Source of the DNA: Bacteroidales bacterium | GTDB lineage: Bacteria; Bacteroidota; Bacteroidia; Bacteroidales; WCHB1-69 | Direction: 5' to 3' | Assembly: GCA_024400635.1 (NCBI GenBank) | Contig: JAKSMI010000002.1 | Span: 120,305-184,304, forward strand | DNA length: 64,000 bases | Shown here: in pieces, positions 46,303 to 62,131 of the stretch | Numbering within the stretch: position 1 is the stretch's first letter | How the letters are laid out: each line of letters starts with the position of its first letter | Notes under the pieces: model-generated | Seen by the model: only the letters and a program-made list of their open reading frames with translations | Told to the model about the DNA's origin: nothing | Database searches by the model: none | Position numbers and translations under genes: made by a program

Positions 46303-46365
46303 ATTTTTGTTGTTTATATTATTGGTTTTGTTGTTAAATGTCGCAAAACAGGTCAAGAGTACTCT

Positions 46366-47628
46366 CTACATCACCTCTTTGTAGAGTTGTTCTTTTATTG
46401 CTTTGCTCTGCATCATTGCACTTGTCCGTAACGAGTTAATGTATCCTTGCGTGGTTGTGGGGTTGGCGTGTCCCATATCCATTTGTATATCCATTAGAGA
46501 CCTCCCATTCTCACACTGAAAACTCGCATAAGTATGCCTTGCCTGCGCCATAGTGGTGTGCGGTAATCCGAGTTCTTCGGTGACCATACGGAGTCCCATA
46601 TTGGCACGGTAGTTAATATCGTTGATTCTGTCGTTAATTTGTCTCTCTGTATGAGTGTTAGCAAGAAAGGGGAAGATGTAGTCGTTAGGGCACGACTTAT
46701 TCACGCTCCCATATTTCGTGATGAGTTGCATCCCCAAGTCTGTAGGATAGATCGAAACGGGTATCGCGTGGCGTTTTGTTTTGTGTCTAACAAACTCGAT
46801 TTTCCACCCCACTTCCGTCAGACTAATGTTTTTGTTCTTGAGGCGCAAGATGTCACTCAAGTAATGTCCGTTGAGGTCAAATGATAGAACAAAAAAGTCT
46901 CTGCCAAATTGCGCCTTCTCATCAGAACTTCTGTATGCAAGTATTTGCTGGAGGCTATGAACCGTCAAGCCGTAATTAACCTTCCTTGTTGAAGTGAGTG
47001 AAAACTTCTTAAACGGGCGTTTGTCCTCAATGTATCCTTTCTCTACCGCGTAATTATAGACCGCCCTTATGCTCCTAAAATACATATTGACGGTGTTTTG
47101 CGAAATATCAGGTCTGTAGCGGTGCATAAAGGTGTCCAGCCGCGATAGCATTTCTCCCGTGATTTCATCCAATGTGATTCTGTCCTTGAACTTCACTATC
47201 CAATTCAAAGCAGTGTGATATGCTGATATGGTTCTGTCCGATAGTGGTCGAGTTCTATTGGCGTCTGACAAGTACTCTGCAAAAATAGTTCGCATATCGT
47301 AGGCACTGGAAGTTTCTCCGCGAATCATCTTTTTATAGTCTCGGTAGAATGATTCAAAACTAAACGAGTCTCCGAGTTTTCCTATTATCTCAATAGCGGC
47401 GTTGTAGTCAGCGCGAATCTCCTCATAAGCCTCCTTGTACTTCTTGAGGTGCTTGTTCTGGAACTCCGCCGCCGTTAATTGTATTGTGCTATTGGTTGCG
47501 AAATAGCGGGGGATCCGATTATATGTGATCCGCAACTCAAGTGTGCGTTTGTCACTAATTGGTTCGGACATTGTTTTACTCCTCCTGTGATTTCGCACTA
47601 TTTCAACGGCTGGTTTTTTCATACTCAA
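46366..47628 (-). CDS. Tyrosine recombinase / integrase (second, distinct from the one at 31972)
   Basis: The catalytic region is ARHTYASFQCENGRSLMDIQMDMGHANPTTTQGYI. It is adjacent to attR and transcribed into the island. Confidence 0.85.
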   Translation of the reverse strand: MSMKKPAVEIVRNHRRSKTMSEPISDKRTLELRITYNRIPRYFATNSTIQLTAAEFQNKHLKKYKEAYEEIRADYNAAIEIIGKLGDSFSFESFYRDYKKMIRGETSSAYDMRTIFAEYLSDANRTRPLSDRTISAYHTALNWIVKFKDRITLDEITGEMLSRLDTFMHRYRPDISQNTVNMYFRSIRAVYNYAVEKGYIEDKRPFKKFSLTSTRKVNYGLTVHSLQQILAYRSSDEKAQFGRDFFVLSFDLNGHYLSDILRLKNKNISLTEVGWKIEFVRHKTKRHAIPVSIYPTDLGMQLITKYGSVNKSCPNDYIFPFLANTHTERQINDRINDINYRANMGLRMVTEELGLPHTTMAQARHTYASFQCENGRSLMDIQMDMGHANPTTTQGYINSLRTSAMMQSKAIKEQLYKEVM

Positions 47629-47721
47629 AATTTTTCCCTCTTTATAGTAATATAATAAAAAAAATTATAATTTTGCGCCACAATCAAAAAAAGTAATGAA
47701 AGTGTTGTCAACATATATGGT

Positions 47722-48075: not shown

Positions 48076-48102
48076 CATTTCGTAATTTTATAATAATATT
48101 CA

Positions 48103-49653
48103 ATGACTAAAGAACAAGAACGTGCGGAACTGCACCGTGCTATATGGCAAATTGCTAACGACCTGCGTGGCAGCGTGGACGGCTGGGATTTCAAGGCATA
48201 CGTCTTGGGTATGCTGTTCTACCGATTCATTTCTGAAAACCTTACCGAATACATTAACAAGGGCGAGCACGAAGCAGGCAATCCCGACTTCAACTATGCC
48301 GAGCTTGATGACGCACAAGCGGAGTATGGTCGTGAGGATACCGTCAAGGAGAAAGGTTTCTACATTCTGCCGAGCGAGTTGTTCGTGAATGTCCGCAAGC
48401 AAGCCAAGAATGATGAGAACCTTAACGAGACTTTGGCAAAGGTTTTTGATAACATTGAGAAATCTGCTATCGGTACGGAATCCGAAGATGACCTGCGTGG
48501 TTTGTTCGATGACATTGATGTCAATTCCAACAAACTGGGTGCCACGGTTGCCAAACGGAATGAGAAGTTGGTGAAGATTTTGGATGCCATTGGCGATTTG
48601 AAGTTGGGTCGTGTTGAGGACAACACCAACGATTTGTTCGGCGATGCCTACGAATACCTTATGACGATGTATGCCAGCAGTGCAGGTAAGAGCGGTGGCG
48701 AGTTTTACACACCGCAGGAGGTTTCGGAGCTGTTGGCGAAGATTACCTTGGTCGGAAGGAAAGAAGTGAACAAGGTTTATGACCCTGCCTGCGGTAGCGG
48801 TTCCCTGTTGTTGAAGTTTGCCAAGGTGTTGGGTAAGGAAAAGGTGCGTCAAGGATTCTATGGTCAAGAGATAAACATTAGCACCTACAATCTGTGCCGA
48901 ATCAATATGTTCCTGCACAATATCAACTATGAGAAGTTTGACATTGCCCACGGCGATACCTTGCTGGAGCCGAAGCATTGGGATGATGAACCCTTTGACT
49001 GCATTGTTTCCAACCCGCCTTATAGCATTAAGTGGGCTGGCGATGACAATCCGTTGCTGATTAACGATGAGCGATTCTTACCCGCAGGGGTGTTGGCTCC
49101 AAAAAGCAAAGCGGACTTGGCTTTCACGATGCATATGCTGGCGTGGTTATCTACAAGCGGAACGGCTGCAATCGTTGAGTTCCCTGGCGTGTTGTATCGT
49201 GGCGGTGCGGAACAAAAAATCAGAAAGTATCTCATTGACAACAACTATGTGGACACCGTGTTCCAGCTGCCACCTGATTTGTTTTTCGGTACAAGCATTG
49301 CCACCTGCATTATCGTTTTGAAGAAGTCTAAAAAAGACAACAGCATTCTGTTCGTGGATGGCAGTGCTGAGTTTGTTCACGAAGGAAATAAGAACAAACT
49401 TTCGCAGGCGAACATTGACAAACTGCTGAACGCATTTAAGGAGCGCAAGGACGTTGACCATTTCTGCAAGTTGGTATCTTGCGAAGATGTGGTGGCCAAC
49501 GACTGCAACCTTTCCGTCAGCAGTTATGTGGAGCAAGAGGACACACGAGAGGAAATCAATATAGTGGAGTTGAACCGCAGCATTGCTGAAATCGTTGCCC
49601 GCCAACAAGTGCTGCGGACGGAAATTGACAAGATAGTTGCGGATTTGGAATAA
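48103..49653 (+). CDS. hsdM: Type I restriction-modification system methyltransferase subunit
   Basis: SAM motif DPACGSGSLL, catalytic motif NPPYSIKW, and an HsdM N-terminal domain. Confidence 0.92.
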   Translation: MTKEQERAELHRAIWQIANDLRGSVDGWDFKAYVLGMLFYRFISENLTEYINKGEHEAGNPDFNYAELDDAQAEYGREDTVKEKGFYILPSELFVNVRKQAKNDENLNETLAKVFDNIEKSAIGTESEDDLRGLFDDIDVNSNKLGATVAKRNEKLVKILDAIGDLKLGRVEDNTNDLFGDAYEYLMTMYASSAGKSGGEFYTPQEVSELLAKITLVGRKEVNKVYDPACGSGSLLLKFAKVLGKEKVRQGFYGQEINISTYNLCRINMFLHNINYEKFDIAHGDTLLEPKHWDDEPFDCIVSNPPYSIKWAGDDNPLLINDERFLPAGVLAPKSKADLAFTMHMLAWLSTSGTAAIVEFPGVLYRGGAEQKIRKYLIDNNYVDTVFQLPPDLFFGTSIATCIIVLKKSKKDNSILFVDGSAEFVHEGNKNKLSQANIDKLLNAFKERKDVDHFCKLVSCEDVVANDCNLSVSSYVEQEDTREEINIVELNRSIAEIVARQQVLRTEIDKIVADLE

Positions 49654-49654
49654 T

Positions 49655-49682
49655 GTAGAATTTAGAATTTAGAATGTAGAAT
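49655..49682 (+). repeat. Heptamer array (GTAGAAT TTAGAAT TTAGAAT GTAGAAT) directly after the hsdM stop
   Basis: Four tandem 7-nt units start 2 nt after the stop codon. Confidence 0.85.
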
Positions 49683-49712
49683 GTTTTACTACAACAGAAG
49701 GAGGGCTGACGT

Positions 49713-50588
49713 ATGAGCAAGATTTCGTTTAGGTTTTATAAAGACCGTGAGGTAAGAGCCGTGTGGGATGACACTACCAGTAAGTGGTTCTTTTCTGTTC
49801 TTGATGTGCTTGGTGCTATCAATGAGCAGGATGACCATACCAAGACAAGGAACTACTGGAAATATCTCAAAAACAAATTGAAGAAGGAAGGTTCTGAGCT
49901 GGTTAGTATCACTACCCAACTGAAGTTAAAGGCTGCTGATGGCAAAAGATACAACACTGATGTGCTGGATGCTTATGGTATTGAAGAATTAGCCAAGAAT
50001 ATTCCCAATAGTAAGGCGATGGAGTTTCTTGACTGGCTTACCTATAGCGACAACACTATCGACGGGAAAAGCAAGAAGAAGGCATACGAGTTGTGGGGAA
50101 GTGGAATGCTGGCGACTCTTGAAGTCGGCACAACCAAAGCACTTCAGCAGATACACGCGTACATCTTTGGCGGCTTGTATGACTTTGCCGGCCAGATTCG
50201 AACAAAGACTATCTCCAAGGGTGGCTTTACCTTCTGTTTGGCTCAATACCTGCCACAACAATTGGACATTATTGAAAAGATGCCCGAAGCAAGCATAGAT
50301 GACATCTTCAACAAATATGTAGAGATGAATGTTGCTCACCCCTTCATGGAGGGTAATGGCAGAAGCACCCGGATATGGCTCGACCTCATGCTGAAAGCAA
50401 GAGTTGCTAAATGTATTGACTGGAGTCAGATAAACAAGAATGACTATCTGCAAGCAATGACACAGAGTGTTGCAGATGCCACTTTCGTCAAGCAGTTGCT
50501 CACTAATGCTCTCACCGACAACATCAACAGCCGCGAGCTCTTTATGAAGGGCATCGATTATTCATATTATTATGAACAGGAGGACTAA
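49713..50588 (+). CDS. Fic/DOC-family protein with an N-terminal Bro-N-like DNA-binding domain
   Basis: Fic motif HPFMEGNGRSTRIW. The N-terminal REVRAVWDDTTSKWFFSVLDVLGAI resembles Bro-N domains. Confidence 0.8.
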   Translation: MSKISFRFYKDREVRAVWDDTTSKWFFSVLDVLGAINEQDDHTKTRNYWKYLKNKLKKEGSELVSITTQLKLKAADGKRYNTDVLDAYGIEELAKNIPNSKAMEFLDWLTYSDNTIDGKSKKKAYELWGSGMLATLEVGTTKALQQIHAYIFGGLYDFAGQIRTKTISKGGFTFCLAQYLPQQLDIIEKMPEASIDDIFNKYVEMNVAHPFMEGNGRSTRIWLDLMLKARVAKCIDWSQINKNDYLQAMTQSVADATFVKQLLTNALTDNINSRELFMKGIDYSYYYEQED

Positions 50589-50590
50589 CA

Positions 50591-51730
50591 ATGAAAAAGA
50601 TTGATAAACCGACGAACGAAGTGAGCGCAGTGCGTACATTGCGATATGTTTGCACGCCTGATTTGGTGAACGATGTCAAGCAGATTATCGGCGAAGCACA
50701 ACGCTTTGCCTACAATGCCGTGAACGTCGCCTTGGTGCAACGCAACTGGCTGTTAGGCAAGCGCATTGCCGAAGAAGAACTGAAAGGAGAAGACCGTGCC
50801 GAATATGGTGCTGCGGTGATTAAGAATCTTTCGACAGAACTGACAGCGGAATATGGCAAAGGGTTTTCGGAACGGAATTTATGGAAATACAAGCAATTTT
50901 ACTTGATGTTCAAGAACTTACCGATAGTGCCGACAGTGTCGGCACTATCGGATGCGCAAAAACTGCCGACAGTGTCGGCACAATTCCAGCAACTGAGCTG
51001 GAGCCACTACGAAAGACTTATGCGTGTCGCAAATGAAGAAGAACGTAATTGGTATTTAAAGGAAACTATCGAACAAATGTGGTCTTACCGAACGCTTGAC
51101 CGCAACATTTCCACACTTTACTACAGACGTTTGCTTTCCTCGTCAGATAAAACGCCGGTAACGGATGAGATGCGGAAGAAAACGGCAGACTTTCAGAACA
51201 ATAAATTTGATTTCATAAAGAATCCCTCCGTGCTCGAATTTTTGGGGCTGCCTGCTAATAAGGTATATACAGAAACAGCATTGGAGCAGGCTATTATTAA
51301 CCAAATGCAATCGTTCCTTCTTGAACTTGGCAAGGGGTTTTCTTTCGTGGCACGCCAACAACTTATACGTACCGACACCCAGAATTTCTTTATCGACTTA
51401 GTGTTTTACAATTATATTCTAAAATGTTTTGTAATTGTAGAACTGAAAAATCACGCACTGACCCACCAGGATATTGGGCAGTTGGATATGTATGTGCGGA
51501 TGTATGATGATTTAAAAAAACGTACCGACGACAATCCGACCATTGGAATTTTGCTATGTACCGAAACCGACAAAACCATTGCCAGATATTCGGTATTGAA
51601 TGAGAACAAACAACTTTTCGCTTCTAAGTACATTGACTATTTGCCAACGGAAAAAGAATTGGAGGAAGAGATAGAACGGCAAAGAATGTTGTTTGACCTA
51701 CAAGCACACCATTACGAACTGGAGGACTAA
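50591..51730 (+). CDS. YhcG-like PD-(D/E)XK nuclease (DUF1016 family), copy 1
   Basis: The C-terminal FIDLVFYNYILKCFVIVELK block (D...E-x-K) and the overall pattern are shared with copy 2. Confidence 0.75.
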   Translation: MKKIDKPTNEVSAVRTLRYVCTPDLVNDVKQIIGEAQRFAYNAVNVALVQRNWLLGKRIAEEELKGEDRAEYGAAVIKNLSTELTAEYGKGFSERNLWKYKQFYLMFKNLPIVPTVSALSDAQKLPTVSAQFQQLSWSHYERLMRVANEEERNWYLKETIEQMWSYRTLDRNISTLYYRRLLSSSDKTPVTDEMRKKTADFQNNKFDFIKNPSVLEFLGLPANKVYTETALEQAIINQMQSFLLELGKGFSFVARQQLIRTDTQNFFIDLVFYNYILKCFVIVELKNHALTHQDIGQLDMYVRMYDDLKKRTDDNPTIGILLCTETDKTIARYSVLNENKQLFASKYIDYLPTEKELEEEIERQRMLFDLQAHHYELED

Positions 51731-51732
51731 CA

Positions 51733-52821
51733 ATGAACAAGATTGATAAACCGACGAACGAAGCCAGAGTGACAGCCGTGTACGATAATGCCGCTGTGGG
51801 AATACATAGTTGCATTGAAGACATCAGACAGATAATAGACAGTGGGCGAAAGGCGGCATACCTTTCCGTCAATGCCGTAATGGTTCAAACCTATTGGAAC
51901 ATTGGCAGGCGTATCGTGGAAGAAGAACAGAATGGAAAAGAACGAGCGGACTATGGCGAATTTTTGATCACCACGCTTGCGGATAGTTTGACACACACAT
52001 TTGGAAATACGTTTAGTAAAAGAAATTTGCAGTATTTTAGAAAATTCTATCAGTTGTTTCCTGATTTTGAGATTGTGAACACGCGTGTTCACAATCTGAC
52101 ATGGTCGCATTATCGGCGACTACTCACAGTGCACGAGTCAGACGCCCGATATTGGTATCTGAACGAAGCCAACGAACAGATGTGGAGCGTACGCACTTTG
52201 GACAGGAATGTCTCGACACAATATTACCATCGTCTTATGCAGTCGCCCAAGAAAGAAAAGGTGATTGCAGAGATGCAGCAGAAGACAGCAGATTTTCAGA
52301 AAAACAAGTACGAACTCATCAAAAGTCCCGTCGTTGCCGAATTCCTTGGTTTCAGTTCTACCGATTACAGCGAAACGGATTTGGAAAAGGCCATCATCAC
52401 ACATCTTCGTGATTTCTTGATGGAACTGGGACGCGGTTTTGCATTCGTGGCGCGACAACAGCATATCGTTACCGAAACCGATGATTATTTTATCGACCTC
52501 GTGTTCTACAATATCGAACTGAAATGCTACGTCCTGATTGATTTGAAAATCGGGAAAATCACGCACCAAGACGTCGGACAGATGGATATGTATGTGCGTA
52601 TGTATGATGATCTTAAACGGAAAAACGACGACAATCCCACAATCGGCATCGTGCTGTGCTCAGAAACAGATAAGGATATTGCAAGATATTCTATTCTTCA
52701 CGATTCAAATCAGATTTTTATGGCTAAATATATGCCATATCTGCCCTCCGAAGACGAACTCCGTGCCGAAATAGAAACGCAGAAACAAATGTTTTACCTG
52801 CAACAAAAAGAAAGACAATAA
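51733..52821 (+). CDS. YhcG-like PD-(D/E)XK nuclease (DUF1016 family), copy 2
   Basis: FIDLVFYNIELKCYVLIDLK, with long conserved blocks shared with copy 1 (for example QDxGQxDMYVRMYDDLK..DDNPTIGI.LC.ETDK.IARYS.L). Confidence 0.75.
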   Translation: MNKIDKPTNEARVTAVYDNAAVGIHSCIEDIRQIIDSGRKAAYLSVNAVMVQTYWNIGRRIVEEEQNGKERADYGEFLITTLADSLTHTFGNTFSKRNLQYFRKFYQLFPDFEIVNTRVHNLTWSHYRRLLTVHESDARYWYLNEANEQMWSVRTLDRNVSTQYYHRLMQSPKKEKVIAEMQQKTADFQKNKYELIKSPVVAEFLGFSSTDYSETDLEKAIITHLRDFLMELGRGFAFVARQQHIVTETDDYFIDLVFYNIELKCYVLIDLKIGKITHQDVGQMDMYVRMYDDLKRKNDDNPTIGIVLCSETDKDIARYSILHDSNQIFMAKYMPYLPSEDELRAEIETQKQMFYLQQKERQ

Positions 52822-52852: not shown

Positions 52853-53325
52853 ATGGATAAGCTAAAAATCACTCGGTATAAAGAATCATTTGATGCGATT
52901 GCAAACTATATAGAAAACGAGCAGAAAGACCAAGTTGAAATCTGGTTTGCCCGCGAATTGCAAACTGTATTGGGATATGCCAGATGGGAAAATTTCGTTG
53001 TGGCGATAAATAGAGCCATCGAGTCGTGTAAAACAATGAATATCAATGTAGAAGACCATTTTCGTGAGGTCACGAAAATGGTCGCTTTAGGAAGCGGTTC
53101 GCAACGGGAAATTTCAGATTTCATGCTCACTCGTTTTGCCTGCTACCTGATTGCACAAAACGGAGACCCGAAAAAATGCTGGGTAAACGTGGAATAAAAC
53201 CCGAAGAACTGCCGCCAGCCGAAGACATAAAGAAAATGGAACGCAAGGCTGCAGGTGATGAGAAGAAAATTGAACAATCAACGAAAAAACTGCCTAAAAC
53301 AGATGCGAATGATGAGCAAGATTGA
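52853..53325 (+). pseudogene. dinD-like (DNA-damage-inducible protein D) gene with an internal deletion or frameshift
   Basis: The N-terminal 115 aa (WFARELQTVLGYARWENF...LTRFACYLIAQNGDPKK) match DinD. The frame then breaks at about 53185. A C-terminal-like segment (GKRGIKPEELPPAEDIKKMERK...) continues in another frame to about 53325, and the middle of the protein is missing. Confidence 0.6.
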
Positions 53326-53446
53326 TAAACCGATGAAACTGGGCGTGATTTTTATTTGACGGTTATTTGATATATGACAGAATGTAAATCTTAACAGGTT
53401 GATTTTCAATATATTTTTATTTGATGACTATTTGATGATTTAGGTT

Positions 53447-54640
53447 ATGAGCAAGATAGAAGAACTAATTAAGAAACATTGTCCAAACGGGGTGGAATAT
53501 ATTCCTATTGGGCAATTGATTTCAAGAGTAAGAGAAAAAGGCAAAAACAATCCTGATATTCAAACAGTGTATGCCATTAGCAACAAATTAGGTGTTGTTA
53601 AATCTTCAGATTATCACGATTTTGAAATACATAGCAGCGACACCTCTAATTATGTTGTATTACGAAAAGGTAATTTCGCATATAATCCTGCACGTTTAAA
53701 TATTGGTTCTATAGCATATTTGCAAACTAACGAAGCAGGATTAGTAAGTCCTATGTATGTTGTATTTCAAATCAATGAAAAACTGATTACGCAAGAATAT
53801 TTGTTTTTGGTAATAAAATCTCAAAGAGTAATATCATTAATAAATGGACTTACAGAAGAAGGAGCAAGGTTCCGTTTTGATTTTGAACGTTGGAATAAAA
53901 TTTCCATCCCCCTCCCGCCGCTCCCCGTGCAGGAGGAAATCGTGCGGATATTGGACAAGTTCACTACGCTGGAAGCAGAGCTGCAAGCAGAGCTGGAAGC
54001 ACGGCGGAAACAGTATGAGTACTATCGGGATAAGCTGCTGAATGTAGATTGTAGAATGCAGAATGTAGAATGGAAGAAGTTGGGAAACATTGGTAAGGTC
54101 TGCATGTGTAAGAGGATATTGAAGCAGCAAACCTCAGCAGAAGGCGATATCCCATTTTTCAAAATAGGAACTTTTGGAGGAGAAGCGGATGCATATATTT
54201 CACGAGAGTTATTTGAATTATACAAATCGAAGTATTCATATCCTAAAAAAGGAGATGTGCTTATATCTGCTGCTGGGACAATTGGAAGAACTATTGTTTT
54301 TGATGGAGAACCAGCGTATTTCCAAGATAGTAATATTGTTTGGTTAAAACATGATGAGACAGTTGTATTAAACTCGTATTTAAGATATTGCTACTCAATG
54401 AATCCTTGGGCGGTTTCTACAGGTGGCACTATCGCTAGATTATATAATGATAATATACTTAATGCTGTTATCCCGGTTCCGCCCCTTCCCGAGCAGGAGC
54501 GCATCGTTTCAATCCTCGACCGCTTCGACACTCTCGTGAACGACATCTCCCAAGGCCTGCCCGCCGAGATAGAGGCACGCAAGAAGCAGTACGAATATTA
54601 TAGGGATAAATTGTTGACGTTTAGAGAATGTAGAATGTAG
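53447..54640 (+). CDS. hsdS: Type I restriction-modification system specificity subunit (two TRDs)
   Basis: There are two target-recognition regions. Each is followed by a conserved region: LPPLPVQEEIVRILDKFTTLEAELQAELEARRKQYEYYRDKLL, and PPLPEQERIVSILDRFDTLVNDISQGLPAEIEARKKQYEYYRDKLLTF. Confidence 0.9.
   Translation: MSKIEELIKKHCPNGVEYIPIGQLISRVREKGKNNPDIQTVYAISNKLGVVKSSDYHDFEIHSSDTSNYVVLRKGNFAYNPARLNIGSIAYLQTNEAGLVSPMYVVFQINEKLITQEYLFLVIKSQRVISLINGLTEEGARFRFDFERWNKISIPLPPLPVQEEIVRILDKFTTLEAELQAELEARRKQYEYYRDKLLNVDCRMQNVEWKKLGNIGKVCMCKRILKQQTSAEGDIPFFKIGTFGGEADAYISRELFELYKSKYSYPKKGDVLISAAGTIGRTIVFDGEPAYFQDSNIVWLKHDETVVLNSYLRYCYSMNPWAVSTGGTIARLYNDNILNAVIPVPPLPEQERIVSILDRFDTLVNDISQGLPAEIEARKKQYEYYRDKLLTFRECRM
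54037..54071 (+). repeat. Heptamer array inside hsdS, directly after the central conserved region
   Basis: GCTGAAT GTAGATT GTAGAAT GCAGAAT GTAGAAT is translated as NVDCRMQNVEW. The GCAGAAT unit supplies CAG at the position where the terminal array supplies the TAG stop. Confidence 0.85.
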
Positions 54641-54678
54641 AATGTAGAATGTAGAATGCAGAATTTAGAATGTAGAAT
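54623..54678 (+). repeat. Heptamer array (8 units) spanning the hsdS stop codon and ending 1 nt before the four-helix-bundle gene ATG
   Basis: AGAGAAT, then GTAGAAT x4, then GCAGAAT TTAGAAT GTAGAAT. The hsdS stop TAG (54638-54640) lies inside the array. Confidence 0.9.
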
Positions 54679-54679
54679 T

Positions 54680-55054
54680 ATGAAGGAGAATATTTTATTG
54701 AATAAAAGTAAGTTGTTGGCGTTAAGGATTATTCGTTTATATCAATATTTGTGCGAGGAGAAGAAGGAGTTTGTTTTGTCGAAGCAAGTGCTTCGTAGCG
54801 GTACAAGTATCGGTGCGAATGTGAGGGAAGCCAATCGTTCCCAATCTAAAAAAGAGTTTATCGCCAAACTGAATATTTCACTAAAAGAAACTGACGAAAC
54901 AATGTATTGGCTTGAATTACTTCACGAAAGCAATTATATCGAAACCGAACCTTATAACAGTATCTATGCCGATACAGAAGAAATACTCAAACTATTAGTA
55001 TCTATTATAAAATCAACAAAGAAGAACGTAAAGAATGCAGAATGCAGAAGGTAG
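54680..55054 (+). CDS. Four-helix-bundle protein (23S rRNA intervening-sequence protein / Avd-like family), copy 1
   Basis: 124 aa with the LRSGTSIGANVREA motif typical of the family. I start at the ATG at 54680. Confidence 0.8.
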   Translation: MKENILLNKSKLLALRIIRLYQYLCEEKKEFVLSKQVLRSGTSIGANVREANRSQSKKEFIAKLNISLKETDETMYWLELLHESNYIETEPYNSIYADTEEILKLLVSIIKSTKKNVKNAECRR

Positions 55055-55106
55055 AATGTAGAATGGATAACCCACCCAATTCTACATTCATAATTCTACA
55101 TTCTAC
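55030..55106. repeat. Forward heptamer array and inverted heptamer array forming a hairpin at the 3' end of cassette 1
   Basis: The forward units are AAAGAAT GCAGAAT GCAGAAG GTAGAAT GTAGAAT (55030-55064). The loop is ATAACCCACCC. The inverted units are ATTCTAC ATTCATA ATTCTAC ATTCTAC (55079-55106). Confidence 0.85.
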
Positions 55107-55174
55107 ATTAATTAAAATGAAGCAGTACGAATATTACCGAAACAAATTGTTGACATTCAAAGAAAAACAGCATA

Positions 55175-56845
55175 ATGACAGAACAAGAAATCAAAGCTTA
55201 TATCAAACAGAATTTCCCATACGAGAACGAATCTTGTGATTGGAAAAACTACGCCAATTTGAAAAATACGTTGTGCGGACACGAAGGAGACGATGTGGTA
55301 TCGTATGTGTCGGCATTATCCAACGTAAACGGTGGCGCATTGGTGATTGGCGTTGAAGATAAGACCCTGGATATTATAGGTATTCAAGATTTTGCCAACT
55401 ATACTCCCGAATCTGCCAAATATCGCATAGTAGAAAAATGCCGAAATCTTAATTCGGAGAATCTTGAAATTTTACCATTGTTTGCCGAAGATTCGCATAA
55501 AACAGTTTGGATTGTAAATGTACCAAAACACTCTCCAAGATTGCCTGTTTATGCCCACAACAAAGCGTGGCAGCGCATTGGCGATTCACTCGTTGAAATG
55601 ACACAAGAAAGGCGTGAGGCTATTCTTTCTGAAATCGTTGTAGAAGAAGATTGGAGTTCTGCCATTATAGAAGATGCTACTATCGATGACTTGGATAGCG
55701 ATGCCATAGAAAAAGCAAAAAAGGAATTTGCGAAACGTAATCCTCACAAAGTGGATGAAATGCAGATTTGGGATGATATTACGTTTCTCAATAAAGCCAA
55801 ACTAACCATACGTGGGAAAATAACCCGCACTGCTTTGATGCTTTTAGGTAAAGAAGAATCAGAATTTCTATTAAATCCATTTGTCGCTAAAATCAGATGG
55901 TCGCTTCGTAGTTTGGGTTCAAATGAAAATAAGGATTACGATGTCTTTTCTATGCCATTACTGCTTAGCGTTGACAAACTGTACAACAAAATTCGCAATG
56001 TCAAATATCGTCTTGTTCGTCCTGATTCTCTCTTCCCTGATGAAATGCTCAGGTATGATATGTTCAACATTCGCGAACCCTTGAATAATGCCATTGCGCA
56101 CCAAGATTACACAAAACGAGCCCGCATTGAAGTGGTTGAATTTGAAGACGACCACCTTGTGTTTCAAAACGCTGGAACATTCCTGCCTAAAAGCGTTGAA
56201 GATGTGATAAATAAAGATTGTCCCGAATCTATTTATAGAAACACATTTCTTGTTGAAGCAATGCGAAACCTGAATATGGTAGAAACCGAAGGCGGCGGAA
56301 TAAAGAAAATGTTCCAAAAACAGAAAATCCGTTTTTTCCCTATGCCAGAATATGACCTTAGCAACAATCTTGTCAAAGTTGAAATTATAGGCAAAGTGGT
56401 AGATGAGGAATTTGCCAAACTTTTGACAAAGAATCCACAACTTTCATTATCAGATATTCTCTTGCTTGACAAAGTTCAAAAACGAAAAGTTTTGAATGAT
56501 GGCGAAATTGCATATTTAAGAAAAAAAGGATTTATCGAAGGTAGGAAACCAAATTTCTTTTTGTCGGAGAATGTTGTAAAACCAATTGACAATAAAAAAC
56601 TGAAGGCCGATTATATTAAAAACCGCAATTTCGATGATTCGCATTATAAGGATATGATTCTTAATTACATTAAGAAATACAAAAAAGCGAGTAAATCAGA
56701 TATAAGCAATCTAATTATAGACAAATTATCTCCTGTGCTTTCGGATAAGCAAAAACAGAGCAAAGTTTCCAATTTGCTTTCTTCTTTAAGAATAGATGGT
56801 AAAATAGAATGCGTTAATCGCTTTTGGGTAATAAAGAAAAATTAA
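55175..56845 (+). CDS. AlbA_2/Schlafen-like DNA-binding domain protein with a GHKL-type ATPase-like region and C-terminal wHTH, copy 2
   Basis: 556 aa and a paralogue of 44172-45860, with the same conserved blocks. Confidence 0.65.
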   Translation: MTEQEIKAYIKQNFPYENESCDWKNYANLKNTLCGHEGDDVVSYVSALSNVNGGALVIGVEDKTLDIIGIQDFANYTPESAKYRIVEKCRNLNSENLEILPLFAEDSHKTVWIVNVPKHSPRLPVYAHNKAWQRIGDSLVEMTQERREAILSEIVVEEDWSSAIIEDATIDDLDSDAIEKAKKEFAKRNPHKVDEMQIWDDITFLNKAKLTIRGKITRTALMLLGKEESEFLLNPFVAKIRWSLRSLGSNENKDYDVFSMPLLLSVDKLYNKIRNVKYRLVRPDSLFPDEMLRYDMFNIREPLNNAIAHQDYTKRARIEVVEFEDDHLVFQNAGTFLPKSVEDVINKDCPESIYRNTFLVEAMRNLNMVETEGGGIKKMFQKQKIRFFPMPEYDLSNNLVKVEIIGKVVDEEFAKLLTKNPQLSLSDILLLDKVQKRKVLNDGEIAYLRKKGFIEGRKPNFFLSENVVKPIDNKKLKADYIKNRNFDDSHYKDMILNYIKKYKKASKSDISNLIIDKLSPVLSDKQKQSKVSNLLSSLRIDGKIECVNRFWVIKKN

Positions 56846-57092
56846 ACGAGTTATTCGGTTATGTGCGATCGGTTGCATTCTATCTATATAACTGTCAATG
56901 ATATGGACAACTAAAATTTAAACGATTTAATTGATTTTGCACTTGATAAAACAATATAAATATTTGATAACCAACGTCATAACTTGTCGAAATTTAAACG
57001 ATTTAAACAAGAACAATGACTAATAATAAAGTGCCGAGATTGAATCCCGCAGAAAACAATACGAATATTACCGCGATAAATTATTGACGTTT

Positions 57093-57155
57093 AGAGAATG
57101 CAGAAGGCAGAATGTAGAATGCAGAATGTAGAATTTAGAATGCAGAATGTAGAAT
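57093..57155 (+). repeat. Heptamer array (9 units) upstream of four-helix-bundle gene copy 2
   Basis: AGAGAAT GCAGAAG GCAGAAT GTAGAAT GCAGAAT GTAGAAT TTAGAAT GCAGAAT GTAGAAT, followed by T and then ATG. Confidence 0.9.
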
Positions 57156-57156
57156 T

Positions 57157-57531
57157 ATGAAGGAAAATGTTTTATTGAATAAAAGTAAGTTGTTGGCTTT
57201 AAGGATTATTCGTTTATATCAATATTTGTGCGAGGAGAAGAAGGAGTTTGTTTTGTCGAAGCAAGTGCTTCGTAGCGGTACAAGTATCGGTGCGAATGTG
57301 AGGGAAGCCAATCGTTCCCAATCTAAAAAAGAGTTTATCGCCAAACTGAATATTTCACTAAAAGAAACTGACGAAACAATGTATTGGCTTGAATTACTTC
57401 ACGAAAGCAATTATATCGAAACCGAACCTTATAACAGTATCTATGCCGATACAGAAGAAATACTCAAACTATTAGTATCTATTATAAAATCAACAAAGAA
57501 GAACGTAAAGAATGCAGAATGCAGAAGGTAG
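57157..57531 (+). CDS. Four-helix-bundle protein (23S rRNA intervening-sequence protein / Avd-like family), copy 2
   Basis: It differs from copy 1 at a single residue (I5V). Confidence 0.8.
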   Translation: MKENVLLNKSKLLALRIIRLYQYLCEEKKEFVLSKQVLRSGTSIGANVREANRSQSKKEFIAKLNISLKETDETMYWLELLHESNYIETEPYNSIYADTEEILKLLVSIIKSTKKNVKNAECRR

Positions 57532-57583
57532 AATGTAGAATGGATAACCCACCCAATTCTACATTCATAATTCTACATTCTAA
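57507..57583. repeat. Forward and inverted heptamer arrays at the 3' end of cassette 2
   Basis: Same arrangement as 55030-55106. The inverted units lie at 57556-57583. Confidence 0.85.
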
Positions 57584-57657
57584 ATTAATTAAAATGAAGC
57601 AATACGAATATTACCGCGATAAATTATTGACATTCAAAAGAAAGGAAGCATAGTCAA

Positions 57658-57745
57658 ATTTGAATCATCGAAAAAATGTTGGTTTTTATGATTTGAATCA
57701 TCGAAAAAATGTTTATTTTTGCAATTTGAATCATCGAAAAAGTGT
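57658..57745 (+). repeat. Three tandem 33-bp repeats (core ATTTGAATCATCGAAAAA) upstream of the DUF4143-type ATPase gene
   Basis: The cores start at 57658, 57691 and 57724. A TAttTTTG box (57714-57721) lies within the second unit. Confidence 0.85.
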
Positions 57746-57771: not shown

Positions 57772-59079
57772 ATGTACAGGAAAATCATTGAGAGACTGAA
57801 AGAATGGAAGACCAGTGACGACAGAAAACCGCTTGTTCTTCTCGGAGCGAGGCAGGTTGGAAAGACTTGGCTTATGAAAGAGTTCGGACAGACATGTTAC
57901 GACTCTATGGCATACTTGAATTGCGACAACGAGCCGTTGGCGAAAGATTTGTTCAACGCCGACTACAACATTCCGCGGATTCTGCTTGCCATCCAAGCCA
58001 TAACCGGCGTGAAGGTTGAACCCGGCAGAACACTCATTGTTATCGACGAGATACAAGAAGTTCAGCGCGGCCTGCACAGCCTCAAGTATTTCTGCGAAAA
58101 CGCCCCTGAATATCACGTGGTTGCAGCAGGCTCGCTGCTTGGCGTGACACTCGGACAAAAAGAGTCTTTTCCCGTGGGAAAGGTGAACATGCTTCAGGTA
58201 CAGCCCATGGATTTTGAAGAGTTCATGATAGCGACCGGACATCAAAACCTGCTCGACAGCATGCGCCAAGGCGACTGGTCCTTGCTCGACATGCTTGATG
58301 CAAAATATCAGGAACTGTTGAGGCAGTATTATTTTGTCGGCGGCATGCCCGAAGCAGTAAAGCAGTATGTGCTGCATCAGGATTTGAAACAGGTGAGGAC
58401 CATTCAGAGCGAGATAATGGAATCATACAGAAAGGACATCGCCAAACATGCCACCAAAGCAGAAGCCGTCCGCATCACGCAAGTGCTCGACACCATTGTC
58501 TCCCAGCTGACAAAGGAAAACAAGAAATTCATATATGGGGTAATCAAGAAAGGGGCGAGGGCCGCGCAGTATGAATTAGCCATACAGTGGCTCATTGACG
58601 CGGGTATAGTGTACAAGGTGCCGCGGGTCTCTGCAATCAAAATGCCCCTGAAAGCATACGAGGATGCAGGAGCGTTCAAGCTGTTCCTTCTCGACTGCGG
58701 ACTCTTTGGCCTGCTAGCCGATGCCCCCGCCAATCTGGTGCTGACAAGCAACAACATCTTCAAGGAATATAAAGGGGCTTTCACAGAGCAATATGTCTTC
58801 CAGCAGTTGTCGGCTTTGAATATACATCCTCATTATTGGAGTAATGACGGCACTCCGGCGGAAATAGACTTTGTGATTCAGGCAGAAGGGAGACCCATCC
58901 CCATTGAAGTGAAAGCTGAAGAAAATGTGCGTGCAAAAAGTATGTCGGAATATATCAAAAACCATCCTGATGATCAGTTGAAAGGATTACGTATCTCAAT
59001 GCGAGAATATGTCAATCAGGATTGGATGGAGAACATACCTCTGTATGCCATCGCGAAATATATGTCGAATGTCAAGTGA
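57772..59079 (+). CDS. AAA-family ATPase (AAA_14 + DUF4143-type)
   Basis: Walker A GARQVGKTWL and Walker B LIVIDEIQ. I start at the ATG at 57772 (MYRKIIERL). Confidence 0.75.
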   Translation: MYRKIIERLKEWKTSDDRKPLVLLGARQVGKTWLMKEFGQTCYDSMAYLNCDNEPLAKDLFNADYNIPRILLAIQAITGVKVEPGRTLIVIDEIQEVQRGLHSLKYFCENAPEYHVVAAGSLLGVTLGQKESFPVGKVNMLQVQPMDFEEFMIATGHQNLLDSMRQGDWSLLDMLDAKYQELLRQYYFVGGMPEAVKQYVLHQDLKQVRTIQSEIMESYRKDIAKHATKAEAVRITQVLDTIVSQLTKENKKFIYGVIKKGARAAQYELAIQWLIDAGIVYKVPRVSAIKMPLKAYEDAGAFKLFLLDCGLFGLLADAPANLVLTSNNIFKEYKGAFTEQYVFQQLSALNIHPHYWSNDGTPAEIDFVIQAEGRPIPIEVKAEENVRAKSMSEYIKNHPDDQLKGLRISMREYVNQDWMENIPLYAIAKYMSNVK

Positions 59080-59089
59080 AATCAGCATT

Positions 59090-62000
59090 ATGACCCAATA
59101 TAACATCATCGCCGAAACCCCCGAATGCACGGTGGTCAGCGACTACCAAGCTCCCTACAATTCCCGTTCCACCGCATACCAAAGTGAAGCGGCATTGGAA
59201 ATGGCGTTCATTGAGGAACTGCAAAAGCAGGCATACGACTACCTGCCAATCAAATCGGAGCAGGAGTTGATTTTTAACCTGCGAAACCAGTTGGAAATCC
59301 TCAATGATTATCTGTTCACGCCAACCGAATGGGAACGGTTCTACACCACCATTATCGCCAAGGCCGATAGCGGCATTGTGGAAAAGACAACCCTCATTCA
59401 AGAGGACTGCGTGCAGGTATTGAAAAGGGATGACGGCAGTTTCAAGAACATAAAACTGATAGACAAAGACCATATCCACAACAACCGTCTGCAAGTAATC
59501 AATCAGTATGTTCCGCAAGGCGGTAAGGCCGAAAACCGTTATGACGTGAGCGTGTTGGTCAATGGTCTGCCGTTGGTTCACATAGAACTGAAACGCAGGG
59601 GCGTGGACATTAAGGAAGCGTTCAACCAAATCAACCGTTATCAACGAGAAAGTTTTTGGAGTGGGTGCGGTCTGTTCGAGTTTGTGCAGATATTCGTAAT
59701 CAGCAACGGAACCTACACCAAGTACTATTCCAACACAACCCGTTTCGCCCATATCAAGGAGCAGGCGGGTAAACCGAATCACAAGGGCAAACGCACCAGC
59801 AATTCATTTGAGTTCACTTCGTGGTGGGCAGACGCAAACAACACGCCGATAACCGACTTGATGGACTTTGCCAGGACTTTCTTTGCCAAGCACACCATAC
59901 TGAACATACTGACCAAATACTGCGTGTTCACGGAGGAAAGATTATTATTGGCGATGCGTCCCTATCAAATCGTGGCCACGGAAAGAATCATAAGCAAAAT
60001 CAACATTGCCACCCAATACAAGAAGTTTGCCCCTGCCGAAAGTGGTGGATACATTTGGCATACCACAGGCAGCGGCAAGACTTTAACCAGTTTCAAGACC
60101 GCACAAATCGCAAGCAAACTGCCGTACATTGACAAGGTGCTGTTCGTGGTAGATAGGAAGGATTTGGACTACCAGACAATGAAGGAGTATGACCGCTTTG
60201 AAAAGGGAGCGGCCAATGGCAATACTAGTACGGCGATTCTCAAGAAACAGTTGGAGAATGCTGAATGCAAGATAATCATTACGACCATACAGAAGTTGTC
60301 AATCTTCACTAAGAAGAATACGGGACACGAGGTGTTCAAGAAGCATTTGGTATTGATATTTGACGAATGCCACCGTTCCCAATTTGGCGATATGCACCGC
60401 CTCATTACCAAGCATTTCAAGCAGTGCCATTTGTTCGGATTTACGGGAACACCTATTTTTGCAGTCAACTCCAGCTCCAATGCCGCCGCCGACCTCAAGA
60501 CCACGGCACAGGCATTCGGGGAGAAACTACACACCTACACCATTGTAGATGCCATCAACGACAAGAACGTGCTGCCGTTCCGTGTAGATTACATTAAGAC
60601 AATCAAGGAAGAAGAACATATCATTGACAAGAAAGTCAGCGACATAGATAGAGAAAAGGCACTATTGTCGAAAGAACGAATCAGCAATGTGGTTTCGTAC
60701 ATTTTGGAACATTTCAATCAGAAAACCAAGCGCAACGAATACTACCAACTGAAGGAACGCCGATTGCGCGGATTCAACTCCATATTCTGCGTGCAAAGCA
60801 TTGAGGCCGCAAAACTCTACTACACGGAGTTCAAGAAGCAGATGGCATTGCTTCCACCTGACCAGCAGTTGAAAGTCGCAACCATTTACAGTTATGCCGC
60901 CAACGAAGCCGATGACGAAAACGGCTTTATGGGGGATGAGAACAACGAGGACACCGAGAGTTTGGATATGGTCAGCAAGGACTTTTTGCAGCAGGCGGTT
61001 TACGACTACAACAAAATGTTCAGCACCAACTTTGACATATCTGCCGATAAGTTTCAAAACTACTACAAGAACTTGTCGCAAAGGGTAAAGAATCGTGAGG
61101 TTGATTTGCTGATAGTGGTCAATATGTTCCTCACGGGCTTTGACGCAACAACCCTCAATACTTTGTGGGTAGATAAGAACCTGCGATTGCACGGCTTGTT
61201 GCAAGCATATTCACGCACCAACCGAATCCTCAACTCCGTCAAGACCTTTGGCAATATTGTATGTTTCCGAAACCTTGAAGACGCAACCAACGAGAGCATA
61301 GGGCTGTTTGGCGACAAGGACGCAGGCGGCATTGTACTGCTGAAAACATACGAAGACTACTACGAAGGCTACACTGACAAGAAAGACAAGGAACACAAGG
61401 GATACAAGGTGCTGATAGAGGAATTGCAGGAAAGATTCCCCGTCGGCAAACTGATAGTCAGCGAACAGAATCAAAAGGATTTCGTCAGATTATACAATGC
61501 AATCTTGAAATTGAAAAACATACTGACCGCATTTGACAAGTTTGCGGGCAATGAGATTCTTTCCGACCGAGATTTCCAGGACTACCACAGCACCTACATT
61601 GACATATACAATGCCATTCGTCCGCAAGTTGGACAAAAGGAGAATATCAATGACGACCTTGTCTTTGAAATGGAACTTATCAAGCAGGTCGAAATCAACA
61701 TTGATTACATTCTAATGCTCATTAAGAAGTATCACGAAAGCCATTTGCAAGATAAGGAAATCGTAGTCAATATCAGCAAGGCAATCAGTTCAAGTATGGA
61801 ACTTCGATACAAGAAGCAGTTGATAGAACAGTTCATTGACAGTCTCACCCCAGCAAGCGATGTGGATAGTGATTGGCGGGCATACGTTCAGCGGCAGAAG
61901 GAGGACGAACTGAACGCCATTATCGCAGACGAAAAGTTGAAGGAAGAAGAAACCAAAGCGTTTATGGAAAATGCGTTCAAAGATGGAGAACTACAAACAA

Positions 62001-62131
62001 CGGGTACGGCATTCGCAGGCATTCTGCCACCAGTTTCACGTTTCTCACCTACGCAGGAGCGCACCCAAAAGCGTGAACGCATATTGGAACGAATCAAGGC
62101 ATTTTTTGAGCGGTTCAGAGATTTGGTGTAG
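59090..62131 (+). CDS. hsdR: Type I restriction endonuclease subunit R
   Basis: N-terminal PD-(D/E)xK nuclease (VNGLPLVHIELKRRG), helicase motif I TTGSGKTLT, and motif II FDECHRSQ. I start at the ATG at 59090. Confidence 0.92.
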   Translation: MTQYNIIAETPECTVVSDYQAPYNSRSTAYQSEAALEMAFIEELQKQAYDYLPIKSEQELIFNLRNQLEILNDYLFTPTEWERFYTTIIAKADSGIVEKTTLIQEDCVQVLKRDDGSFKNIKLIDKDHIHNNRLQVINQYVPQGGKAENRYDVSVLVNGLPLVHIELKRRGVDIKEAFNQINRYQRESFWSGCGLFEFVQIFVISNGTYTKYYSNTTRFAHIKEQAGKPNHKGKRTSNSFEFTSWWADANNTPITDLMDFARTFFAKHTILNILTKYCVFTEERLLLAMRPYQIVATERIISKINIATQYKKFAPAESGGYIWHTTGSGKTLTSFKTAQIASKLPYIDKVLFVVDRKDLDYQTMKEYDRFEKGAANGNTSTAILKKQLENAECKIIITTIQKLSIFTKKNTGHEVFKKHLVLIFDECHRSQFGDMHRLITKHFKQCHLFGFTGTPIFAVNSSSNAAADLKTTAQAFGEKLHTYTIVDAINDKNVLPFRVDYIKTIKEEEHIIDKKVSDIDREKALLSKERISNVVSYILEHFNQKTKRNEYYQLKERRLRGFNSIFCVQSIEAAKLYYTEFKKQMALLPPDQQLKVATIYSYAANEADDENGFMGDENNEDTESLDMVSKDFLQQAVYDYNKMFSTNFDISADKFQNYYKNLSQRVKNREVDLLIVVNMFLTGFDATTLNTLWVDKNLRLHGLLQAYSRTNRILNSVKTFGNIVCFRNLEDATNESIGLFGDKDAGGIVLLKTYEDYYEGYTDKKDKEHKGYKVLIEELQERFPVGKLIVSEQNQKDFVRLYNAILKLKNILTAFDKFAGNEILSDRDFQDYHSTYIDIYNAIRPQVGQKENINDDLVFEMELIKQVEINIDYILMLIKKYHESHLQDKEIVVNISKAISSSMELRYKKQLIEQFIDSLTPASDVDSDWRAYVQRQKEDELNAIIADEKLKEEETKAFMENAFKDGELQTTGTAFAGILPPVSRFSPTQERTQKRERILERIKAFFERFRDLV

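Follow-up and report, generated by a model that had tools for sequence, protein, structure and literature searches.

Heptamer-armed four-helix-bundle gene cassettes in a Type I restriction-modification operon of a Bacteroidales bacterium resemble the intervening sequences of 23S rRNA

How did two nearly identical copies of a small gene come to lie inside one Type I restriction-modification (R-M) operon, each framed by short tandem heptamers and by copies of the 3' end of the specificity gene hsdS? The question is raised by a 64,000-nt stretch of a Bacteroidales bacterium (assembly GCA_024400635.1, contig JAKSMI010000002.1, positions 120,305 to 184,304), referred to below as the window. The gene encodes a four-helix-bundle (4HB) protein of 124 aa, and a preliminary description of the sequence had proposed that it belongs to an element which homes to the 3' end of hsdS. 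Overall it appears, with a probability of about 0.6, that the two copies are cassettes of the intervening sequence (IVS) type with a stem cut by RNase III, and that the hsdS-derived blocks around them are recombination joints. The features on which the argument depends are listed here; L204 and L206 are related loci used for comparison, and TRF denotes Tandem Repeats Finder.

49647-49690, plus strand: solo forward array of TAGAATK units, beginning in the hsdM stop codon
53447-54640, plus strand: hsdS (PF01420 / Methylase_S), its final four codons (ECRM, then stop) lying inside a heptamer array
54008-54042, plus strand: central conserved block of hsdS, c0
54040-54072, plus strand: in-frame heptamer array in hsdS, directly after the central block (NVDCRMQNVEW); TRF
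54584-54628, plus strand: C-terminal block of hsdS, c1, left flank of cassette A
54625-54678, plus strand: forward heptamer array of cassette A, 7.7 units; TRF; pairs with 55078-55109 (32 nt, 91% complementary)
54680-55054, plus strand: 4HB gene copy A, 124 aa (PF05635, E 3.7e-29; TIGR02436, E 1.9e-32)
55032-55109, plus strand: 3' hairpin of cassette A, with forward units 55032-55065, a loop and inverted units 55079-55109; local fold -27.6 kcal/mol
55117-55176, plus strand: ATG, hsdS block c2 and native hsdS tail; aligns with the intact hsdS 3' ends that abut AlbA_2 in L204 and L206
55175-56845, plus strand: AlbA_2 / HATPase_c_4 gene (domain matches), whose native place is directly after hsdS
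56846-57032, plus strand: spacer travelling with the AlbA_2 gene, conserved in L204 and L206
57033-57098, plus strand: hsdS 3'-end remnant (AEIESRRKQYEYYRDKLLTFRE, c3), left flank of cassette B; the same remnant stands without a cassette in L206
57095-57156, plus strand: forward heptamer array of cassette B, 8.7 units with a 21-nt super-period; TRF
57157-57531, plus strand: 4HB gene copy B, 124 aa, 99.2% identical to copy A and 95% to its counterpart at this site in L204
57509-57586, plus strand: 3' hairpin of cassette B, with forward units 57509-57542 and inverted units 57556-57586
57594-57653, plus strand: ATG, hsdS block c4 and an intact natural hsdS tail (MKQYEYYRDKLLTFKRKEA, then stop)

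Each cassette measures about 0.55 kb, is placed between copies of the hsdS 3' block, and consists of a forward heptamer array, the PF05635/TIGR02436 gene, and a hairpin of forward and inverted heptamers; in cassette A the forward units of the hairpin encode the C-terminus of the 4HB ORF (open reading frame). The two segments, about 54563-55165 and 57033-57653, are homologous throughout, and the proteins differ, as the preliminary description had it, at a single residue (I5V). Only 3 of the 375 nucleotides differ between the two ORFs, all of them within the first 42 nt. Differences are concentrated elsewhere: about 11-13% in the hsdS-derived blocks of some 45 nt and about 29% just upstream of the left block, while the heptamer arrays differ by one additional unit. 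The heptamer GTAGAATGYAGAAT, allowing up to two mismatches, occurs 33 times against 1.16 expected by chance. TRF reported as period-7 all six cassette arrays already described, together with the two forward-only arrays at 49647-49690 and 54040-54072 that had been overlooked. The upstream arrays end 1 nt before the 4HB start codon, and the 32-nt arms are 91% (A) and 84% (B) complementary. The hsdS block itself (KQYEYYR[D/N]KLL) is found five times, always direct and on the plus strand (54008, 54584, 55120, 57054, 57597), against 0 expected; four of these copies had been recognised before, and the fifth, c0, belongs to the central conserved region of hsdS.

Is the cassette an insertion? The decisive loci, L204 and L206, were obtained through homologues of the AlbA_2 protein. 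Of these, L204 is an allelic locus: a 5.7-kb stretch that begins with the ATPase gene and runs past hsdR and arginase to thymidine kinase is 97% identical to the window, whereas its hsdS is a different allele, ending in RRQQYEYYRNKLLTFKEKTA and a stop. Its site 1, the hsdS/AlbA_2 junction, is empty: hsdS abuts AlbA_2 with overlapping stop and start (gcaTAATGaca). Its site 2, the hsdS remnant after AlbA_2, is filled, and the cassette has the same two junctions as in the window. In L206, which lies in another chromosomal context, the order is hsdS, AlbA_2, spacer, hsdS remnant, AAA_14 and hsdR, and both sites lack a cassette. Filled and empty sites align with one clean gap of about 540 nt per site. 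Since related loci have both positions empty, the cassette is an insertion, as had been supposed, and it is polymorphic in presence at otherwise conserved sites; alleles with and without it, which the preliminary description had asked for, are thus available.

The heptamer arms were followed through the gene family by scanning one genome per species, which gave 72 loci with homologues of 37-78% identity from Bacteroidota, Clostridia, Deltaproteobacteria-type lineages, Treponema, Ignavibacteria, Lentisphaeria, cyanobacteria and others. On inspection by eye, nearly every locus shows tandem heptamers before the gene and their reverse complements after it, in a unit that varies by locus (for example AATTACG, AATTAGG, AGTGCAG, ACAATGA, GATGAAT, CAGTTAC and CGGAGCG). 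When the 150 nt upstream were locally aligned with the reverse complement of the 200 nt downstream, an inverted-repeat score of at least 16 was reached by 57% of the 72 4HB ORFs and by 0.2% of 463 control ORFs from the same loci. Period-7 arrays numbered 60 in 44 kb of 4HB flanks and 20 in 518 kb elsewhere (1.36 versus 0.039 per kb); no array of period 5, 6 or 8-11 adjoined a 4HB gene, so that the enrichment is restricted to period 7. Where both arrays were detected, the arms were complementary within the locus in 25 of 30 cases, compared with 18% of across-locus pairings, and the complementary loci used 20 distinct units. A shared unit was found in 12-16% of pairs with protein identity below 60%, in 55% at 60-70%, in 84% at 70-80% and in 100% above 80%. 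Therefore, the unit is inherited with the gene, both arms changing together.

The position of the arrays is equally regular. Arrays have a median length of 4.7 units; the forward array begins a median 5 nt before the end of the upstream ORF and ends a median 13 nt before the 4HB start codon, the downstream array begins at the 4HB stop codon, and the following ORF begins a median 5 nt past the last array. Neighbours lie on the same strand in 59 of 62 cases upstream (p = 2e-14) and in 56 of 66 downstream (p = 7e-9). They are mostly unrelated housekeeping genes, such as a purE-type carboxylase, M20 peptidases, Mur ligases, ABC transporters, thyA and pflB, and R-M genes (ResIII, hsdM, hsdR, RhuM, Fic) make up about 15-20% of them. 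Taken together, the geometry of the arrays, the co-orientation and the neighbours indicate a cassette lodged in the intergenic gap of genes that are transcribed together. One family member, at L070:4786-5547, has long degenerate arrays and a tRNA gene on either side, and is thus part of a transcript that is processed anyway. A 'three-frame stop' function of the forward arrays was considered and rejected, as 29 of 40 contain a stop triplet while 82% would be expected from shuffled units. Stop triplets are modestly enriched in the downstream arrays (74% versus 47%) because the 4HB stop codon often lies inside them.

Can the arms form a stem in the transcript? In the minimum free energy structure of 54600-55130 the 4HB ORF is enclosed by a stem formed between the upstream and the inverted array (z = -2.8). 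The predicted long-range duplex has -39.0 kcal/mol in cassette A, where a 3-nt internal loop separates perfect runs of 11 and 17 bp, and -30.6 kcal/mol in cassette B, with two 12-bp runs; the local 3' hairpin is weaker, at -29.5 (A) and -26.9 (B) kcal/mol. The hairpin is unlike an intrinsic terminator since no T-run follows it. The two solo arrays could also pair with the same inverted arrays, at -33.8 kcal/mol for the one after hsdM and -37.0 kcal/mol for the one inside hsdS.

The closest known counterpart is the 23S rRNA IVS of Leptospira and Coxiella, in which a PF05635 ORF is likewise enclosed by terminal inverted repeats with a stem of about 28-33 bp. In Coxiella burnetii the terminal stem has 28 bp, two or three tandem GACAGAT heptamers and one degenerate copy lie directly before the S23p start codon, the copy number varies among strains, and RNase III cleavage has been mapped to the start of the first repeat (PMC4990558). 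Tandem heptamers right before the start codon are thus shared with the window cassettes, in which the unit is GTAGAAT rather than GACAGAT. The host differs, being rRNA for the 23S IVS and a protein-coding Type I R-M operon for the window cassettes; the ORF is intact and conserved in the latter and decaying in the Coxiella IVS, and the additional local 3' hairpin is found only in the window cassettes. An Rfam search of 49-59 kb gave no rRNA and nothing relevant, a lone sub-threshold match to CRISPR-DR9 at 54506-54526 being taken as chance; of 15 related loci scanned for location in rRNA, none is so placed and one lies between two tRNA genes. Because the arms are family-wide and the Coxiella heptamers are associated with RNase III cutting, the IVS-like, stem-enclosed architecture which the preliminary description saw in the window is supported by comparison and by experimental precedent, and processing of the window RNA would follow by analogy.

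Each cassette would accordingly represent one unit of a widespread class of IVS-type elements, whose heptamer sequence drifts while both arms change together. In the operon transcript the arms are predicted to pair over about 30 bp, interrupted by a small internal loop. This stem would be a substrate of RNase III, like the heptamer stem of the Coxiella 23S rRNA IVS, and cleavage would release the 4HB RNA and separate hsdS from the downstream cistrons. Such an element may be tolerated wherever fragmentation of the RNA is harmless, and we infer it to be selfish in nature.

Several observations weigh against this explanation. The local 3' hairpin competes with the long-range stem, and in some loci (L006, L023) the near arrays are direct rather than inverted. 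Unlike the S23p ORF of Coxiella, which is in decay, the 4HB ORFs have stayed intact and are conserved across phyla, suggesting that the protein does something. The junction of TTAATTAAAATG with AAGCA was not found outside the filled sites, and the explanation does not account for the origin of the first unit of hsdS block, cassette and hsdS block. Arm mismatches, read on the sense strand, comprise 69 of the G:U type and 84 of the A:C type (p = 0.26), with transversions commonest; as the G:U type shows no excess, these counts do not establish selection for an RNA stem, and the complementarity may have a DNA-level cause. Selection on the arms at the RNA level is still regarded as plausible by analogy.

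A DNA-level cause could take the form of a mobile element with the arrays as terminal inverted repeats, bound by a pentameric 4HB protein or by a host factor, and with ORF-less hairpins as non-autonomous derivatives. Hairpins of forward and inverted heptamers lacking an ORF do exist, in frame inside the type III res gene of L006 and between genes in L015. The idea would also account for ORFs of 98.9% identity in two unrelated contexts (L204 and L073), for the missing G:U signature, for the co-variation of heptamer unit and protein lineage, and for an average array of 4.7 units, near the five subunits of the crystal entry 2RLD. Against it, neither a target-site duplication nor a known transposase fold was seen; symmetric terminal repeats would not be expected to produce co-orientation with the neighbours (95% and 85%) unless this was selected, and many positions are stable across species (L047/48, L050/57/58, L033/37/49). 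It appears unlikely on balance. In L006, a type III R-M locus, AATTCGG arrays also occur inside long ORFs (343-376 and 4411-4442), and the in-frame hairpin of res is at 7297-7400.

It might also be asked whether the module is a resident regulator and not selfish, the arrays serving as cis sites in the mRNA at which the 4HB protein or the stem controls translation of its own and the flanking cistrons. The arrays end close to start codons (median 13 nt before that of the 4HB gene and 5 nt before that of the next gene), the ORFs are conserved across phyla, R-M operons provide about 15-20% of contexts, and a 4HB-plus-suffix gene comes after hsdS in 17 of 120 cases. Moreover, a role in translational control has been proposed for TAACTGA heptamer repeats (PMC4679880). 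A regulator would hardly be expected beside genes that are functionally unrelated to each other, nor to be present in one and absent from the other of two near-identical loci; also, the 4HB-plus-suffix genes beside hsdS are without heptamers. Regulation as the primary role is therefore considered distinctly unlikely.

These TAACTGA direct repeats are known from Beggiatoaceae, cyanobacteria and five Bacteroidetes, with function unknown (MacGregor 2015, PMC4679880). They overlap ORF ends, stop just before start codons and are occasionally translated in frame; 169 sets are direct and a single one is inverted, and the main text of that paper mentions neither the 23S IVS nor 4HB genes (PMC4679880). 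Units of the TAACTGA/TAACTGG type flank the 4HB gene in L042 and L053. Cassette arrays share with TAACTGA and short tandemly repeated repetitive (STRR) sequences the period of 7 and the location at ORF boundaries; the TAACTGA repeats are nearly all direct, whereas cassette arrays are complementary pairs around a PF05635 gene. A second likeness is to Rickettsia palindromic elements and miniature inverted-repeat transposable element (MITE)-like repeats, in which short repeat-bounded DNA is tolerated between genes or in frame within them; the hsdS array at 54040-54072 and the res hairpin of L006 are the counterparts here. Palindromic elements have a conserved consensus, whereas the cassette arms are tandem heptamers of variable sequence and many copies come with a conserved ORF.

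The solo arrays may be described at this point. At the hsdM site, the array of L076 is longer (67 nt) and supplies the hsdM stop codon. The in-frame array of hsdS has CAG where an in-frame TAG would fall, and it is conserved in the hsdS alleles of L076 and L206 despite their different target recognition domains (TRDs). Phase variation through these in-frame heptamers is unsupported, the array length being equal in the three alleles. In other alleles, simple-sequence repeats directly follow the hsdS conserved block, namely G9 (L077 at about 90-110, L078 at about 890-910), (CA)n (L101) and (GACA)n (L158, L176); they are candidate phase-variation switches at the place where the window hsdS has in-frame heptamers.

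What, then, do the hsdS blocks represent? They occur at every boundary among hsdS, 4HB, AlbA_2, the AbiEii module and AAA_14, and they coincide with breaks in homology: the stretch shared by the window and L204 opens precisely at c2 and is lost again at the tail of c4, where L204 has an extra module of 1.4 kb (a 192-aa ORF and AbiEii) and the window a different natural hsdS tail, KRKEA. The same tail also ends a genuine hsdS in L189, and natural tails elsewhere read LLTFKEKTA, TFKRKEA or similar. In the tail of c2 the stop overlaps the AlbA_2 start, and one A has been lost so that the frame is shifted. The blocks are of mixed descent. The left third of c2 is like c4 and the remainder like the resident block of L204, c1 is closer to the left block of L204 and the remnant of L206 than to c3, and the left block of L204 resembles the resident remnant of L206. 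The right block of L204 (AAGCAATACGAATATTACCGCGATAAATTATTGAC) is the same as c3 and c4 over a 32-nt core, with one further difference from c3 at the 5' end. Such comparisons suggest that the Type I R-M operon is a mosaic, with the hsdS 3' blocks as its recombination joints.

It had been suggested instead that an element homes to the 3' end of hsdS with a target-site duplication of about 45 nt, and that the resulting pair was later duplicated around AlbA_2. The three filled sites, two in the window and one in L204, indeed share both junctions, including the identical TTAATTAAAATG to AAGCA, and all lie in hsdS 3' blocks; c3 equals c4 over 32 nt; and relatives at 81% and 67-68% identity are also located at hsdS 3' ends. 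The family does not bear this out, since no host-derived direct repeats were found outside the arrays in the 72 loci and the neighbours are mostly housekeeping genes. Copies 81% identical to that of the window, with the unit GTAGAAT, lie in L077 and L078 between hsdS (ending LLTFKRM) and the hsdR start codon with no downstream block, and L004, L005 and L072 likewise lack one. A further copy (L073-75), with the same heptamer and 95% DNA (96% protein) identity to the window's and 98.9% to that of L204, adjoins a divergent yebC-type gene with no hsdS block upstream, its contig ending in the 3' forward array with the right side unseen. The left and right blocks of L204 differ at 4 of 35 positions despite 97% identity of the surroundings; a fresh duplication gives identical copies, so the right block is not a fresh duplicate. 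Furthermore, AlbA_2 alone is also bracketed by hsdS-end repeats: in L206 its module lies between two copies of about 80 nt (3 differences) without any 4HB gene. We know of no precedent for a 45-nt target-site duplication, and homing is held to be very improbable. Nor is a single simple tandem duplication sufficient, in view of ORF divergence of 0.8% against 11-29% in the flanks, the one cassette of L204, and the different tails of c2 and c4. Among the flanks examined in relatives, the heptamers are thus widely present and the hsdS fragments mostly missing.

Tyrosine recombinases offer another way to move modules, and shufflons in which a recombinase rearranges hsdS through its conserved repeats are an established feature of other bacteria. 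A recombinase such as the integrase at 46366-47628, which is divergent and about 470 nt upstream of hsdM, could use the hsdS 3' block as an att-like core for circular modules carrying 4HB, AlbA_2 or AbiEii, and every module boundary is such a block. L076 and L206 have the same block structure and no integrase among the called genes in the stretches compared; the blocks are all direct and none is inverted; and hybrid blocks with variable switch points fit homologous exchange better than a fixed core. Site-specific recombination is therefore judged quite improbable here.

Under the preferred explanation, of IVS-type cassettes combined with recombination joints, the four extra hsdS 3' blocks would be the points at which the modules of the operon (hsdS alleles, the 4HB cassette, AlbA_2 with its spacer, the 192-aa ORF with AbiEii, and AAA_14) were exchanged, duplicated and deleted. 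Exchange may have proceeded by homologous or unequal recombination and gene conversion at the only sequence that the modules share. As a first step, the cassette would have become linked to a pair of blocks at the remnant after AlbA_2, which is the state of L204. The second copy would then have arisen at the hsdS/AlbA_2 junction in the lineage of the window through recombination between blocks. From an L204-like ancestor the present layout could be reached by an unequal crossover between blocks together with deletion of a block, or by a single gene conversion of block, cassette and block. That the two window ORFs are 99.2% alike and yet 95% identical to the ORF of L204 indicates a recent copy or conversion in the window lineage. 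The exact junction of inverted array, ATG and block (TAAAATGAAGCARTACGAATATTAC) had 0 matches in the metagenome collection, which thus gave no sign of its recurrence outside this lineage. The ATG before c2 and c4 could plausibly derive from recombination at a microhomology, the hsdS block (KKQYEYY) resembling the start of some hsdR genes (MKQY, as in L121); no donor with precisely this hsdR start behind a 4HB cassette was found, and the idea was not retained.

The tie between the family and R-M operons deserves a separate comment. In a metagenome sample, 17 of 120 hsdS 3' ends are followed, with an ATGA overlap, by a distant family member consisting of TIGR02436 and a TIGR04258 suffix domain. 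Such 4HB-plus-suffix genes after hsdS have no heptamers (L094, L096, L099, L100, L110, L113, L124, L139 and others). This second, distant branch is habitually embedded in Type I R-M operons. Thus R-M operons often host the 4HB family, and the tie to hsdS is real but loose.

The protein of the window scores 101.5 bits with PF05635 (cut-off 33.8) and 111.7 bits with TIGR02436 (cut-off 24), and by sequence it matches 2RLD, an entry with five chains, over residues 1-116 (E 1.8e-38). That entry derives from Bacteroides thetaiotaomicron, a species with TIGR02436 genes of its own. The 4HB proteins and Avd of diversity-generating retroelements (DGRs) are a homologous fold family (PMC10053308). The window protein shares this fold family with DGR Avd and matches the Avd model NF033474 weakly (20.4 bits versus a cut-off of 80). 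DGR Avd genes adjoin a reverse transcriptase, a template repeat and a variable repeat, whereas the window has none of these and the genomic setting is unrelated. No reverse transcriptase domain was found in the window ORFs of at least 300 aa that were scanned, a set that excluded two antisense ORFs taken as spurious, 24995-25957 (inside a tRNA-synthetase gene) and 48100-48978 (inside hsdM). Judging from these matches, the protein is Avd-related and yet not a DGR Avd, in agreement with the kinship proposed in the preliminary description.

As far as searched, the cross-phylum pattern is undescribed and no general link between heptamer arms and the 4HB gene family has been published; among the papers found on this family, none connects the two except the note on Coxiella, which concerns a single species. 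The element is best regarded as known in kind, an ORF-bearing, heptamer-stemmed intervening sequence, in a new setting of mRNA operons rather than rRNA. A broader proposal is possible, if on the doubtful side: heptamer-armed 4HB cassettes may be the autonomous members of an undescribed class of elements, in which a pentameric 4HB protein recognises about five heptamers per arm, in RNA or DNA, and promotes spread or processing, with rRNA IVSs as a special site and STRR/TAACTGA arrays as ORF-less or solo derivatives. The comparison itself brings into one frame three puzzles that have been separate for decades, namely IVS ORFs, stand-alone Avd-like 4HB genes and heptanucleotide repeats at gene boundaries. 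The design of heptamer stem and ORF is found in protein-coding operons of at least eight phylum-level groups, always with period 7, and this wider pattern, with its ORF-less derivatives and its overlap with heptanucleotide repeats, is of more interest than the window locus by itself. For defence operons, the hsdS 3' block appears to be a joint at which specificity alleles and accessory genes are swapped, which bears on how such operons diversify. In practical terms, the cassettes break short-read contigs and alter the annotated C-termini of upstream genes. Short-read contigs end within heptamer arrays or at cassette borders in L073-L075, L202 and L203, and exact matches to the window proteins were only fragments of the same sample, broken at repeats. 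Metagenome counts of these assembly-breaking cassettes are probably too low. In L076 (8250-8390) a 4HB gene is interrupted after about 83 codons by unrelated DNA with a strong hairpin (ggcagaaagcccaacgttgggctttctgcc), and the contig ends there.

The rest of the operon, which occupies 48.1-62.1 kb of the window on the plus strand as a single Type I R-M unit, is made up as follows.

48103-49653, plus strand: hsdM, first gene of the operon (PF02384 and PF12161), 85% DNA identity to hsdM of L076
49713-50588, plus strand: Fic/Bro-N gene, in the Type I R-M operon
50591-52821, plus strand: two DUF1016/YhcG genes, in the Type I R-M operon
52853-53197, plus strand: truncated dinD-like gene, in the Type I R-M operon
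about 57772-59079, plus strand: AAA_14/DUF4143 ATPase, the next embedded module (PADLOC candidate PDC-S01)
about 59090-62131, plus strand: hsdR, end of the operon, within the stretch 97% identical in DNA to L204

The identities given earlier to hsdS and to the AlbA_2-like gene were upheld by matches to Methylase_S and to AlbA_2 with HATPase_c_4. The hsdS-AlbA_2 adjacency is present in L204-L209, and one homologue of the AlbA_2 gene is assigned by NCBI to a Bacteroidales metagenome-assembled genome. In PADLOC, four of the interleaved gene families are defence candidates (PDC-S01, S02, S04 and S13). The cassettes sit among these R-M accessory genes (Fic, two DUF1016, Bro-N and AAA_14), between hsdM and hsdR; the 4HB protein, by contrast, matches no PADLOC model, and most of its relatives are in housekeeping operons.

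Short conserved junctions are also seen elsewhere in the operon. The same junction, the end of an upstream gene and the start of DUF1016, precedes both DUF1016 genes (50569-50621 and 51711-51763), whose bodies differ, and a stump of a third DUF1016 start (53312-53337) follows the truncated dinD gene, which is full-length (291 aa) in L076. The DUF1016/dinD junctions are more evidence of module swapping at short conserved junctions in this operon. At 57657-57745, in the interval from the c4 tail to the AAA_14/DUF4143 gene, lie 2.7 tandem copies of a 33-nt unit (ATTTGAATCATCGAAAAAATGTTG...); this repeat is absent from the allelic L204, where the 192-aa ORF and AbiEii occupy its place.

Upstream of the operon, an island of about 16 kb (31900-47700 of the window) lies between a YitT gene and hsdM, which are about 350 nt apart in L076. 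It contains two tyrosine integrases, one at 31948-33180 on the plus strand and the one mentioned above on the minus strand, together with a WYL/WCX regulator, an Mrr-type nuclease, an IetA/TRIP13-like AAA ATPase and an ion-channel gene. A second AlbA_2/HATPase_c_4 paralogue (44172-45860, minus strand) is also present, and just downstream of it five copies of a perfect 11-nt tandem repeat (AAAGTTCTCTT) occupy 44094-44148. Outside the island, a 54-nt unit is repeated 2.2 times (78% matches) at 27815-27934, just downstream of a class I tRNA-synthetase gene.

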